Of a DNA stretch of 64,000 nt, positions 20,379 to 29,721 are shown in pieces. The notes beneath the pieces are model-generated. The model saw only the letters and a list, made by a program, of their open reading frames with translations. It ran no database searches and was not told the DNA's origin. Each line of letters opens with the position of its first letter. The first letter of the stretch is position 1. This DNA is from Escherichia coli (lineage in GTDB: Bacteria > Pseudomonadota > Gammaproteobacteria > Enterobacterales > Enterobacteriaceae). The position numbers were made by a program, and so were the translations under genes. The DNA is taken from NCBI RefSeq assembly GCF_050920415.1, contig NZ_CP169309.1. One strand, 5' to 3'.

Positions 20379-21026
20379 TTATTCGTTAGTGGCAGGGTAA
20401 CGAAGCGTGGGGCACAGGAGATACATCTCGAGTAAGATGGCGACGTAATCGCGAGCTTCTTTTTTAAGATCAAAAGATTGCGGGGCAAAGAGCCAGTTTT
20501 CCATCAGGCCGGAAATATAGCCACGCATAATAATTGCTGCGCGACGTGTCATTAAATCCGCAGGCAACATTTTTGCTTCAATACAATGTTTTAACGTTTG
20601 TTCTATACGGTCATAACTTTCCAGACAGAGATTACGTTGTGCCTGTTGCACAACAGCCATTTCTCCGACAAATTCGCATTTGTGGAATATAATCTCCATC
20701 AATAATCGACGCCGTTCTTCTGTCACCGTGGATTCAAGAACATGAATTAATATCTCTCTTAATACTGAGAGTGGATCGCCAGGGAATTTTGCCTGATACT
20801 CAAGCTCTAGTTCACCAATATTGGATTCTGACAGTTCCCAGATCTCACTGAACAAATCCGACTTGTCTTTAAAATGCCAGTAGATTGCACCGCGCGTAAC
20901 GCCAGCTGCTTTTGCAATCTCGCCCAGCGAGGTGGATGATACCCCCTGCTGTGAGAAAAGACGAAGAGCCACATCGAGGATGTGTTGGCGCGTTTCCTGC
21001 GCTTCTTGTTTGGTTTTTCGTGCCAT
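20379..21026 (-). CDS. acrR: TetR-family repressor AcrR (215 aa)
   Basis: N-terminal TetR helix-turn-helix; divergent from acrAB. Confidence 0.93.
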
Positions 21027-21054
21027 ATGTTCGTGAATTTACAGGCGTTAGATT

Positions 21055-21078
21055 TACATACATTTATGAATGTATGTA
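21055..21078. promoter_or_regulatory. 24-bp palindromic AcrR operator in the acrR/acrA divergent promoter region
   Basis: TACATACATTTATGAATGTATGTA, inverted repeat with one central mismatch, between the acrR and acrA starts. Confidence 0.75.
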
Positions 21079-21167
21079 CCATAGCACGACGATAATATAA
21101 ACGCAGCAATGGGTTTATTAACTTTTGACCATTGACCAATTTGAAATCGGACACTCGAGGTTTACAT

Positions 21168-22361
21168 ATGAACAAAAACAGAGGGTTTACGCCTCTGGCG
21201 GTCGTTCTGATGCTCTCAGGCAGCTTAGCCCTAACAGGATGTGACGACAAACAGGCCCAACAAGGTGGCCAGCAGATGCCCGCCGTTGGCGTAGTTACAG
21301 TCAAAACTGAACCTCTGCAGATCACAACCGAGCTTCCGGGTCGCACCAGTGCCTACCGGATCGCAGAAGTTCGTCCTCAAGTTAGCGGGATTATCCTGAA
21401 GCGTAATTTCAAAGAAGGTAGCGACATTGAAGCAGGTGTCTCTCTCTATCAGATTGATCCTGCGACCTATCAGGCGACATACGACAGTGCGAAAGGCGAT
21501 TTAGCGAAAGCCCAGGCTGCAGCCAATATCGCGCAATTGACGGTGAATCGTTATCAGAAATTGCTCGGTACGCAGTACATCAGTAAGCAAGAGTACGATC
21601 AGGCTCTGGCTGATGCGCAACAGGCGAATGCCGCGGTAACTGCGGCGAAAGCTGCCGTTGAAACTGCGCGTATCAATCTGGCTTACACCAAAGTCACCTC
21701 TCCAATTAGCGGCCGCATTGGTAAGTCAAACGTGACGGAAGGTGCCCTGGTGCAAAACGGTCAGGCGACTGCGCTGGCAACCGTGCAGCAACTTGATCCG
21801 ATCTACGTTGATGTGACTCAGTCCAGCAACGATTTCCTGCGCCTGAAACAGGAACTGGCAAATGGCACGCTGAAACAAGAGAACGGCAAAGCCAAAGTGT
21901 CGCTGATCACCAGTGACGGCATTAAGTTCCCACAGGACGGTACGCTGGAGTTCTCTGACGTTACTGTCGATCAGACCACCGGGTCTATCACCCTACGCGC
22001 TATCTTCCCGAACCCGGATCACACTCTGCTGCCGGGTATGTTCGTGCGCGCACGTCTGGAAGAAGGGCTTAATCCAAACGCCATTTTAGTCCCGCAACAA
22101 GGTGTAACCCGTACGCCGCGTGGCGATGCTACCGTCCTGGTGGTAGGCGCGGATGACAAAGTGGAAACCCGTCCGATCGTTGCAAGCCAGGCTATTGGCG
22201 ATAAGTGGCTGGTGACAGAAGGTCTGAAAGCAGGCGATCGCGTAGTAATAAGTGGGCTGCAGAAAGTGCGTCCTGGTGTCCAGGTAAAAGCACAAGAAGT
22301 TACCGCTGATAATAACCAGCAAGCCGCAAGCGGTACTCAGCCTGAACAGTCCAAGTCTTAA
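21168..22361 (+). CDS. acrA: RND efflux periplasmic adaptor AcrA (397 aa), lipoprotein
   Basis: Starts MNKNRGFTPLAVVLMLSGSLALTGC (lipobox); track ORF starting at 21132 is an upstream extension. Confidence 0.95.
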   Translation: MNKNRGFTPLAVVLMLSGSLALTGCDDKQAQQGGQQMPAVGVVTVKTEPLQITTELPGRTSAYRIAEVRPQVSGIILKRNFKEGSDIEAGVSLYQIDPATYQATYDSAKGDLAKAQAAANIAQLTVNRYQKLLGTQYISKQEYDQALADAQQANAAVTAAKAAVETARINLAYTKVTSPISGRIGKSNVTEGALVQNGQATALATVQQLDPIYVDVTQSSNDFLRLKQELANGTLKQENGKAKVSLITSDGIKFPQDGTLEFSDVTVDQTTGSITLRAIFPNPDHTLLPGMFVRARLEEGLNPNAILVPQQGVTRTPRGDATVLVVGADDKVETRPIVASQAIGDKWLVTEGLKAGDRVVISGLQKVRPGVQVKAQEVTADNNQQAASGTQPEQSKS

Positions 22362-22380: not shown

Positions 22381-25533
<3,153 letters not shown>

Positions 25534-26479: not shown

Positions 26480-26698
26480 ATGTCCGAAAAACCTTTAACG
26501 AAAACCGATTATTTAATGCGTTTGCGTCGTTGCCAGACAATTGACACGCTGGAGCGTGTTATCGAGAAAAATAAATACGAATTATCAGATAATGAACTGG
26601 CGGTATTTTACTCAGCCGCAGATCACCGCCTCGCCGAATTGACTATGAATAAACTGTACGACAAGATCCCTTCCTCAGTATGGAAATTTATTCGCTAA
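26480..26698 (+). CDS. hha: Haemolysin expression modulator Hha (72 aa), H-NS partner
   Basis: Starts [35 protein letters not shown]; track ORF 26234..26698 is an upstream extension. Confidence 0.9.
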
Positions 26699-26869
26699 TA
26701 AATAATTGGCTTTCGGAGCTATAACCAGCTGTTTATTAAGAATTTTATACTTTATCGCCATGAAGGCGCACCCTATGTGATCTTCATCACACAGACGTAA
26801 TGGGAACGTTCTCTTCACTGACTTTTCGTCTTACTGTGTTGCCGCATTTTCAGCAACCGGAGGTCAGTA

Positions 26870-27421
26870 ATGAGCACAGAAAAAGAAAAAATGATTGCTG
26901 GTGAGTTGTATCGCTCGGCAGATGAGACGTTATCTCGCGATCGCCTGCGCGCTCGTCAGCTTATTCACCGATACAATCATTCCCTGGCGGAAGAGCACAC
27001 ATTACGCCAGCAAATTCTCGCTGAATTATTCGGTCAGGTGACAGAGGCTTATATTGAGCCAACGTTTCGCTGTGACTATGGCTATAACATTTTTCTCGGC
27101 AATAATTTTTTCGCCAACTTCGATTGCGTGATGCTTGATGTCTGCCCTATTCGCATCGGTGATAACTGTATGTTAGCGCCAGGTGTTCATATCTACACGG
27201 CAACACATCCCATCGACCCTGTAGCACGTAATAGCGGTGTTGAACTGGGGGAACCCGTCACCATCGGTAATAACGTCTGGATTGGCGGACGCGCAGTCAT
27301 TAACCCTGGTGTGACCATTGGTGATAACGTCGTGGTAGCCTCAGGTGCAGTTGTCACAAAAGATGTCCCGGACAATGTTGTCGTGGGCGGTAATCCAGCC
27401 AGAATCATTAAAAAATTGTAA
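26870..27421 (+). CDS. maa: Maltose O-acetyltransferase (183 aa), hexapeptide-repeat family
   Basis: Left-handed beta-helix hexapeptide repeats near the C-terminus. Confidence 0.9.
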
Positions 27422-27536
27422 CCTGTTTTTCGCAACTGTTATGCAAAATCGTGGCAAATCTGTTACTTTCCCTCTACTATTCCCACGTTAAAATAGGGTG
27501 TTCCCTGGAAAGTTGCAGATACCACGAAGGCAAACG

Positions 27537-28007
27537 ATGACCGAAATACAACGCCTGCTGACCGAAACGATTGAGTCTCTGAATACCCGCGAAAAACGCG
27601 ACAACAAACCCCGCTTTAGTATCAGTTTTATCCGTAAACATCCGGGGCTGTTTATCGGTATGTACGTTGCTTTTTTTGCCACCCTGGCGGTGATGTTACA
27701 GTCCGAAACGCTGTCAGGCTCTGTCTGGCTACTGGTTGTATTATTTATCCTGCTTAATGGTTTCTTCTTTTTCGATGTCTACCCACGCTACCGCTATGAA
27801 GATATCGACGTGCTGGATTTCCGCGTTTGCTATAACGGCGAATGGTACAACACGCGCTTTGTACCTGCCGCGCTGGTTGAAGCCATCTTGAACTCTCCGC
27901 GTGTCGCGGATGTTCATAAAGAACAACTGCAAAAAATGATCGTCCGTAAAGGTGAACTGTCTTTTTACGATATTTTTACCCTCGCTCGCGCCGAATCAAC
28001 ATCTTAA
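27537..28007 (+). CDS. ylaC: Inner membrane protein YlaC (156 aa)
   Basis: Start [15 protein letters not shown] chosen for K-12 length; two hydrophobic segments. Confidence 0.7.
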
Positions 28008-28164
28008 GTTAGGGTTACATACCAGGCGTAAAGCTCTGCGCCTGGTCAAATGACAACGTTCGTTTCCACCCATCTCTTCATGAAATCCCGGCTCTACCTC
28101 CTTATCTCCTGCCAGCCTTTTTCCACAATCAGATATACTTTCCCTACACTGTGTTAATAAGGAT

Positions 28165-29721
28165 ATGCTGGTGAGAACACGACATCTGGTCGGCCTTATT
28201 TCGGGAGTACTGATTCTTTCAGTATTGCTGCCTGTCGGCTTAAGCATCTGGCTGGCCCATCAGCAGGTAGAAACATCATTTATTGAAGAGCTGAATACGT
28301 ATTCCTCCCGCGTCGCTATTCGGGCCAATAAGGTGGCGACACAAGGGAAAGATGCGCTGCAAGAGCTGGAAAGGTGGCAAGGTGCGGCCTGTAGCGCAGC
28401 CCATCTCATGGAAATGCGTCGGGTATCTTACAGTTATCGCTATATTCAGGAAGTGGTTTATATCGATAACAACGTTCCCCAGTGTTCGTCTCTGGAGCAT
28501 GAAAGCCCGCCCGATACCTTCCCCGAGCCAGGTAAAATTTCGAAAGATGGTTATCGTGTCTGGTTAACATCGCATAACGATTTAGGCATTATCCGTTACA
28601 TGGTTGCCATGGGAACGGCACATTATGTCGTCATGATCGACCCCGCTTCCTTTATTGATATCATTCCCTATAGCTCATGGCAAATTGATGCCGCCATTAT
28701 TGGCAATGCCCATAACGTTGTGATAACCAGCAGTGATGAAATTGCTCAGGGAATTATTACCAGGCTACAAAAAACACCCGGTGAGCATATCGAAAATAAT
28801 GGAATTATTTACGATATCCAGCCCTTCCCGGAGATGAATATTTCGATCATCACCTGGGCTTCAACGAAAATGTTGCAGAAAGGCTGGCATCGGCAAGTCT
28901 TTATTTGGTTACCGCTCGGGTTGGTGATTGGCCTGCTGGCAGCGATGTTTGTGCTGCGTATTTTGCGCCGTATCCAGTCACCGCATCATCGGCTGCAGGA
29001 TGCTATCGAAAATCGTGATATTTGCGTGCACTATCAGCCGATTGTCTCCTTAGCCAATGGCAAAATTGTCGGTGCTGAGGCACTGGCGCGCTGGCCGCAG
29101 ACAGACGGTAGTTGGTTGTCACCAGATAGTTTTATTCCGCTGGCACAGCAAACGGGGCTTTCTGAGCCGTTGACGCTACTGATTATAAAAAGTGTCTTTG
29201 AAGATATGGGCGACTGGCTGCGTCAGCATCCGCAGCAGCATATTTCGATCAATCTTGAATCCACCGTACTCACCTCGGAAAAAATCCCGCAATTGCTGCG
29301 TGAAATGATCAATCACTATCAGGTTAATCCCAGACAGATCGCGCTTGAACTCACTGAACGCGAGTTTGCCGATCCGAAAACCAGCGCCCCGATAATTTCT
29401 CGCTACCGGGAGGCGGGCCATGAAATTTATCTCGATGATTTTGGTACGGGGTATTCAAGTTTAAGCTATTTACAGGATCTGGATGTCGACATTCTGAAGA
29501 TCGATAAATCTTTCGTTGATGCGCTGGAATATAAAAATGTCACGCCACATATCATCGAAATGGCAAAAACACTGAAACTGAAAATGGTAGCGGAGGGAAT
29601 CGAAACCAGTAAACAAGAAGAGTGGCTACGCCAGCATGGCGTGCACTACGGCCAGGGCTGGCTCTACAGCAAGGCATTACCGAAAGAGGATTTCTTACGC
29701 TGGGCCGAGCAACATTTGTGA
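28165..29721 (+). CDS. pdeB: c-di-GMP phosphodiesterase PdeB (YlaB): periplasmic sensor domain plus EAL domain
   Basis: N-terminal TM helix, second TM, C-terminal EAL domain (GAEALARW); start may instead be the GTG at 28171. Confidence 0.85.
   Translation: MLVRTRHLVGLISGVLILSVLLPVGLSIWLAHQQVETSFIEELNTYSSRVAIRANKVATQGKDALQELERWQGAACSAAHLMEMRRVSYSYRYIQEVVYIDNNVPQCSSLEHESPPDTFPEPGKISKDGYRVWLTSHNDLGIIRYMVAMGTAHYVVMIDPASFIDIIPYSSWQIDAAIIGNAHNVVITSSDEIAQGIITRLQKTPGEHIENNGIIYDIQPFPEMNISIITWASTKMLQKGWHRQVFIWLPLGLVIGLLAAMFVLRILRRIQSPHHRLQDAIENRDICVHYQPIVSLANGKIVGAEALARWPQTDGSWLSPDSFIPLAQQTGLSEPLTLLIIKSVFEDMGDWLRQHPQQHISINLESTVLTSEKIPQLLREMINHYQVNPRQIALELTEREFADPKTSAPIISRYREAGHEIYLDDFGTGYSSLSYLQDLDVDILKIDKSFVDALEYKNVTPHIIEMAKTLKLKMVAEGIETSKQEEWLRQHGVHYGQGWLYSKALPKEDFLRWAEQHL

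Follow-up and report, generated by a model that had tools for sequence, protein, structure and literature searches.

The divergent control region of acrR and acrAB in Escherichia coli raises the question of whether a single-base change at the center of the AcrR operator alters the control of efflux. E. coli relies on AcrAB-TolC as its main intrinsic multidrug efflux pump, and local changes in the control region of the pump can raise resistance. In the 64-kb stretch of DNA analyzed here (hereafter the window), a first-pass annotation described a near-perfect inverted repeat between the two start codons, took it for the AcrR operator, and suggested that its central bases may differ by one nucleotide from those of K-12, a difference that would matter for efflux regulation if real. 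Our comparisons point, with a probability of about 80%, to an ordinary AcrR operator that carries a natural and essentially neutral spacer allele.

The operator and its setting

The region corresponded to the mscK-acrR-acrA-acrB locus of E. coli, with matches in 5,423 of 5,426 complete genomes and with RefSeq annotation in agreement. The features on which the analysis depended were the following.

20379–21026, minus strand: acrR, intact TetR-family repressor of 215 aa (RefSeq annotation of the identical MFDS1022581 locus)
21007–21026, minus strand: marbox, the MarA/SoxS/Rob site (location from PMC11642870; sequence identical to K-12)
21053–21082, plus strand: predicted sigma-70 acrAB promoter (consensus scan)
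21055–21064: left 10-bp AcrR operator arm, TACATACATT (perfect inverted repeat with 21069–21078; identical to the published site)
21065–21068: operator spacer TATG, 4 bp, TGTG in K-12 (MG1655 alignment; variant base 21066, A for G)
21069–21078: right 10-bp AcrR operator arm, AATGTATGTA (repeat and pattern search; identical to the published site)
21168–22361, plus strand: acrA, periplasmic adaptor of 397 aa (RefSeq annotation of matching loci)
22384–25533, plus strand: acrB, RND permease of 1049 aa, intact (ORF list, matching-locus annotation, and length check)

The inverted repeat was found where it had been placed, at 21055–21078, within the 141-bp intergenic region that runs from the acrR start codon (21026, minus strand) to the acrA start codon (21168, plus strand). 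This 24-bp palindrome, TACATACATTTATGAATGTATGTA, reads TACATACATT-TATG-AATGTATGTA, and a repeat search recovered its two arms as fully complementary 10-nt stretches separated by 4 nt. With the center left free, the arm pattern occurred only once in the window, even with a tolerance of three mismatches, and 100 dinucleotide-preserving shuffles all lacked it.

For the acrAB promoter, the 24-bp AcrR site in the literature, 5'-TACATACATTTGTGAATGTATGTA, is composed of two 10-bp inverted repeats and a 4-bp spacer, according to PMC10597343 and PMC9769551, which quote Su, Rutherford & Yu 2007. The window site matched it at 23 of 24 bases, both arms were identical, and the neighboring gene encoded an AcrR equivalog, in support of the earlier assignment; the palindrome is the canonical AcrR operator between acrR and acrAB, an already known element. 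The same papers state that AcrR binds a K-12 acrAB promoter fragment directly and give a pair of AcrR dimers as the proposed binding mode (citing Su 2007 and Li 2007), and PMC6790063 reports EnvR at the same site as AcrR.

The suspected difference from K-12 proved to be real. Alignment of 21000–21200 to MG1655 left a single differing column, 21066, with A in the window and G in K-12; this change falls at spacer position 2 and was the sole difference across the entire intergenic region. The alignment that had been proposed as a check thus returned an operator that was not identical to the reference, yet the difference appears benign. The K-12 operator shares with the window its locus, 10-bp arms, 4-bp spacing, flanking intergenic sequence (bar 21066), and repressor (bar N210Y), whereas it differs in its TGTG spacer and in its dyad symmetry, which comprised 10 of 12 pairs in K-12, 11 of 12 in the window, and 12 of 12 in strain N96.

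The repressor, the promoter, and the leader

The AcrR open reading frame scored 417.8 bits against the NCBIfam AcrR equivalog NF007949 (cutoff 271), carried the Pfam domains TetR_N and TetR_C_2, and matched the AcrR crystal structures PDB 2qop/3bcg with E = 2e-140. The repressor was full length and identical to K-12 AcrR at 214 of 215 residues. Its sole change, N210Y, lies in a hypervariable tail, where homologues carry N, Y, T, A, V, E, S, K, R, Q, or C at residue 210. The search for derepressing acrR mutations that the first-pass annotation had proposed yielded none, as L34 and R45 were intact and the known inactivating changes looked for (R45C, L34Q, frameshift, stop, and IS insertion, a non-exhaustive list) were absent from window AcrR. 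Strains 2013C-4282 and 2020CK-00188 combine the same Y210 form of AcrR (WP_000101739.1) with a G-type operator, indicating that N210Y and the operator allele are not coupled. In the window, AcrA and AcrB were intact, and AcrA residue 390 was T where K-12 has A.

A consensus scan predicted an acrAB promoter with a −35 hexamer TTTACA at 21053–21058, an 18-nt spacer, and a −10 hexamer TACCAT at 21077–21082, identical in the window and K-12 under both alleles. The operator filled the spacer of this predicted promoter and overlapped both hexamers, so that the variant base lay inside the promoter spacer. No mapped transcription start site for acrA or acrR was found in the literature searched, and the promoter placement is a prediction; RegulonDB/EcoCyc presumably place the acrA −10 at the same TACCAT hexamer. 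According to PMC11642870, the marbox for MarA, SoxS, and Rob lies at the very start of the acrR coding sequence and takes up its first 20 nt.

This arrangement suggested a conventional mode of control, in which AcrR would bind both 10-bp arms through its N-terminal helix-turn-helix. Since the operator lies between the predicted −35 and −10 hexamers, bound AcrR would block RNA polymerase at the acrAB promoter, and a ligand on the AcrR C-terminal domain would cause the repressor to be released. MarA, SoxS, and Rob act as activators at the marbox, which lies 29 bp left of the operator.

Alternatively, the palindrome might act mainly as a hairpin, in RNA (such as an acrR leader transcript) or in DNA, with a structure changed by the variant. 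A minus-strand promoter-like site (TTAATA ... TATATT/TATTAT, 21121 to 21092) would transcribe through the palindrome, and the 44-nt RNA was predicted to fold at −10.9 kcal/mol, with a z-score of about −2.6. However, the predicted fold and energy were the same for the K-12, window, and N96 alleles, as the variant is a loop base; the AT-rich stem is weak, no Rfam family was matched, and what has been published for the acrAB promoter fragment is binding by AcrR. A hairpin role is therefore very improbable.

A second, imperfect inverted repeat was noted at 21097–21118 (ATAAACGCA / TGGGTTTAT, 9 nt, 89% complementary), downstream of the predicted acrA −10 and hence in the presumptive acrA leader. 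An action of CsrA on acrAB leader structure has been reported.

Frequency and haplotypes of the allele in E. coli

The K-12 62-mer centered on the operator was present exactly in 5,277 of 5,423 complete E. coli genomes, while 146 differed from it somewhere. The corresponding window 62-mer was exact in 19 genomes, and 127 other genomes carried some other variant within the same 62 bp. The A allele occurred in at least 20 genomes (the 19 exact matches and N96), or approximately 0.4% of the 5,423, a figure that is a lower bound only, as N96 carries A and yet has no exact match.

Over 8,062 bp, the A-allele genomes formed three backgrounds. Group 1 consisted of nine genomes with three sub-haplotypes among them; it falls inside a large clade, 898 genomes at no less than 99% identity, whose nearest sampled members carry G. 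Group 2 consisted of nine genomes 0–2 SNPs apart; no other genomes reached 99% identity to its haplotype, indicating that the A allele is fixed in this group. Group 3 was made up of the window, MFDS1022581 (at a distance of 1 SNP), and N96 (at 8 SNPs), all carrying A, and over 24 kb the latter two were the only genomes of the 5,426 to reach at least 99% identity with the window. In the ±1 kb around the operator, the groups were 20–52 SNPs apart, and the nearest G-allele neighbor lay at 4 SNPs for group 1, 8–9 for group 2, and 11 for group 3. Groups 2 and 3 were identical across roughly 460 bp around the operator, which makes short-tract recombination or retained polymorphism possible between those two.

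The N96 spacer, TATA, contained a second G-to-A change at the base equivalent to 21068 (L022 4020–4043), producing a perfect 24-bp palindrome. This operator allele was unique to N96 among the 5,423 complete E. coli genomes, and the base that it changes was G in 110 of 115 species among the matches listed. N96 had been considered as a G-allele sister of the window, being 99.9% identical over acrR; its TATA spacer led to rejection of that reading, and the interpretation of the A allele as a very recent mutation fell once N96 was found to carry A.

An error of sequencing or assembly at 21066 has next to no probability. Nothing specific favored an error, apart from the A being a single base that is rare in the species, and different laboratories have found the same base in 20 independent complete genomes, among them those of the two strains closest to the window; four Escherichia outgroups have it as well.

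Several further observations concerned these lineages. The window lineage was rare in E. coli, the next-best genomes reaching 98.7–98.9% over 9000–33000. MFDS1022581 carried an IS2 insertion between ylaC and pdeB that was absent from the window (window about 26500–28500; L149 19168–20396), and its AcrA had the substitution R335H, with A where window position 22171 is G. Several group-2 genomes had approximately 0.7 kb of extra sequence within the span corresponding to window 9000–33000, where their matches fell in two pieces. In E. coli E500002, a group-2 strain with the A allele, acrR was annotated as a pseudogene with an internal stop (L013 3344–3991), which, unlike the window, is a genuine candidate for derepression.

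Ancestral state of the spacer

A neighbor-joining tree was built from ±2 kb around the operator, with the spacer columns removed. All four Escherichia outgroups (E. albertii, two divergent GTDB species representatives labeled 'E. coli', and Escherichia sp. ESNIH1) carried TATG, which makes A the ancestral state for the genus, and Fitch parsimony on the local tree placed A at the root with at least four changes needed. It is G that came close to fixation in E. coli, where the rare A alleles are reversions, introgressions, or relics.

Variation of the spacer across species

One genome per species was scanned for exact arms with a free center, in a sample that did not include Salmonella, Shigella, E. 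fergusonii, or the main E. coli representative, and at least 120 loci were recovered. An AcrR homologue (35–98% identity) lay within 400 bp of the site at 115 of 120 loci among the matches listed. Read towards acrA, the spacers of the 115 species listed were TGTG in 36, TATG in 28, CGCG in 14, TGCG in 7, CTTG in 6, and CATG in 4, with rarer others making up the remainder. By position, these 115 species had T in 76 and C in 37 at position 1; G in 63, A in 41, T in 9, and C in 2 at position 2; T in 80 and C in 29 at position 3; and G in 110 at position 4. The invariance of the arms was built into the search pattern; the keeping of exact arms beside regulators only 35% identical nevertheless amounts to a strong footprint. 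The spacer itself was non-random, following a loose Y-R-Y-G pattern with a pyrimidine at position 1 in 113 of 115 species and the G at position 4 among the matches listed, and this pattern makes the operator intrinsically asymmetric between its acrR and acrA sides.

Among the matches listed, the AcrR recognition helix was invariant in all spacer classes, and three identical 36-aa helix-turn-helix segments were each found with both TGTG and TATG. The segment shared by the window and K-12 occurred with TATG at three Escherichia outgroup loci, and Citrobacter youngae has both TATG and TGTG (L050 vs L059). The pairing of identical helix-turn-helix segments with both spacers indicated that the same reading head serves TGTG and TATG in nature. 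The complete 24-mer of the window, including TATG, was also found in Escherichia albertii NBRC 107761, Enterobacter cloacae/asburiae, Citrobacter youngae ATCC 29220, Pseudescherichia vulneris, Kluyvera, and Aeromonas spp., in each case with an adjoining AcrR homologue whose recognition helix was the same as that of the window. TATG is the usual state in those species, whereas in E. coli it is a minority allele.

These comparisons indicated that spacer position 2 is probably under little or no sequence constraint. The claim that the central difference matters for efflux regulation was left unsupported, as the spacer varied freely in 115 species with identical arms.

Exact arms also occurred beside AcrR-like regulators of 35–45% identity in Betaproteobacteria (Acidovorax, Comamonas, Ottowia, Polaromonas, and Silvimonas) and in Aeromonas; these deep-arm loci include L024, L031, L033, L051, L067, L088, L096, and L097. 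Such arms reflect unusually deep conservation of the operator, or possibly horizontal spread of a regulator-operator-pump module. At five loci (L035, L074, L093, L102, and L130) the exact arms were present and an AcrR homologue was not detected within 400 bp. These arm-only loci include Thomasclavelia cocleata, Clostridium neonatale, and Pseudidiomarina sediminum, and they may be chance AT-rich matches or sites of unrelated regulators.

Possible effect of the allele on repression

A single-base operator change in a natural isolate has a precedent in K. pneumoniae KP27, where a T-to-C change at position 5 of TACATACATT was associated with AcrAB overproduction, and bioRxiv 10.1101/138248 gives acrAB derepression as its authors' prediction. 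The KP27 change, however, affects a conserved arm base, whereas the window change lies in the variable spacer with the arms intact. A changed arm base of the kind expected of a derepressing operator mutation was absent from the window, where both arms were identical to those of K-12. There was no sign of derepression in the sequence, with arms, marbox, predicted promoter hexamers, and repressor all intact. PMC10597343 and PMC9769551 describe gel shifts in which AcrR binds promoter fragments whose predicted sites are mismatched at 9–11 of 24 positions; next to this, a single spacer change is small.

The operators of related repressors allow a further comparison. QacR IR1 and the TtgR and MtrR operators are, like that of AcrR, long palindromes that overlap the promoter of a divergent efflux operon. 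QacR, TtgR, and MtrR are TetR-family multidrug repressors for which pair-of-dimers binding has been reported, the same model that is quoted for AcrR, although their sequences and proteins differ from those of AcrR (E-values 1e-44 to 1e-32). TtgR and MtrR were the nearest AcrR homologues with solved structures, and no AcrR-DNA complex was among the solved structures found for AcrR and its homologues. The MtrR-operator structure paper offered no usable statement on contacts to the central operator bases, and the TtgR/AcrR sensor paper contained no operator mutagenesis. Under the pair-of-dimers model, the central bases could be contacted.

The change at 21066 might instead be a functional cis-regulatory variant, in which greater symmetry alters the affinity or cooperativity of AcrR or EnvR and sets the basal expression of acrAB and acrR to a new level, and which particular E. 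coli lineages have repeatedly acquired under selection. The recurrence of the A allele fits such a reading, as it occurs on three backgrounds well separated from one another, each closer to a G-allele genome, with a Fitch minimum of four changes on the local tree and with fixation in 9 of 9 group-2 genomes and 3 of 3 genomes of the window lineage. The rise in dyad symmetry from K-12 to the window, and on to the perfect palindrome of N96, is likewise compatible with it, as are the constraint on spacer positions 1 and 4 and the fact that E. coli has become nearly fixed for G. For TtgR, better operator palindromy reportedly enhances binding cooperativity, according to the title of Krell et al. 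2007. However, species whose reading heads are identical carry TATG or TGTG in free alternation, including within Citrobacter youngae, and three recurrences of a transition in approximately 5,400 genomes are unremarkable without a neutral baseline; 127 other genomes also vary somewhere in the same 62 bp. The identity of groups 2 and 3 across roughly 460 bp would moreover let recombination or ancestral polymorphism explain part of the recurrence. We consider a functional effect of this kind unlikely. A stronger form of the same idea is more doubtful still, namely that spacer position 2 acts as a tuning knob, such that reversion from G to A (and on to TATA in N96) shifts AcrR/EnvR cooperativity and basal AcrAB efflux and has been selected in at least three lineages.

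The reading as an ordinary operator with a neutral spacer allele thus remains the preferred one, with the A at 21066 seen as a natural allele that is rare in E. coli, ancestral in Escherichia, and common in other Enterobacterales. The change most likely leaves repression essentially unchanged, and we infer that AcrR affinity and acrAB expression are likewise unaltered. Some observations count against neutrality. The rarity of A in E. coli could mean that G is mildly favored there; the presence of A on three backgrounds, each with a closer G neighbor, makes recurrence under selection possible; and the spacer does not appear to be entirely free, given the G at position 4 and the pyrimidine at position 1.

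Implications for efflux control

Most likely, the rare TATG allele is benign, and genome-based prediction of resistance should not count it as a marker. The juxtaposition of invariant arms with a loose Y-R-Y-G spacer in the 115 species listed may help to interpret other variants of the acrR-acrA intergenic region. If it were true that the allele alters repression, E. coli would offer a small natural case of tuning by way of the operator spacer.
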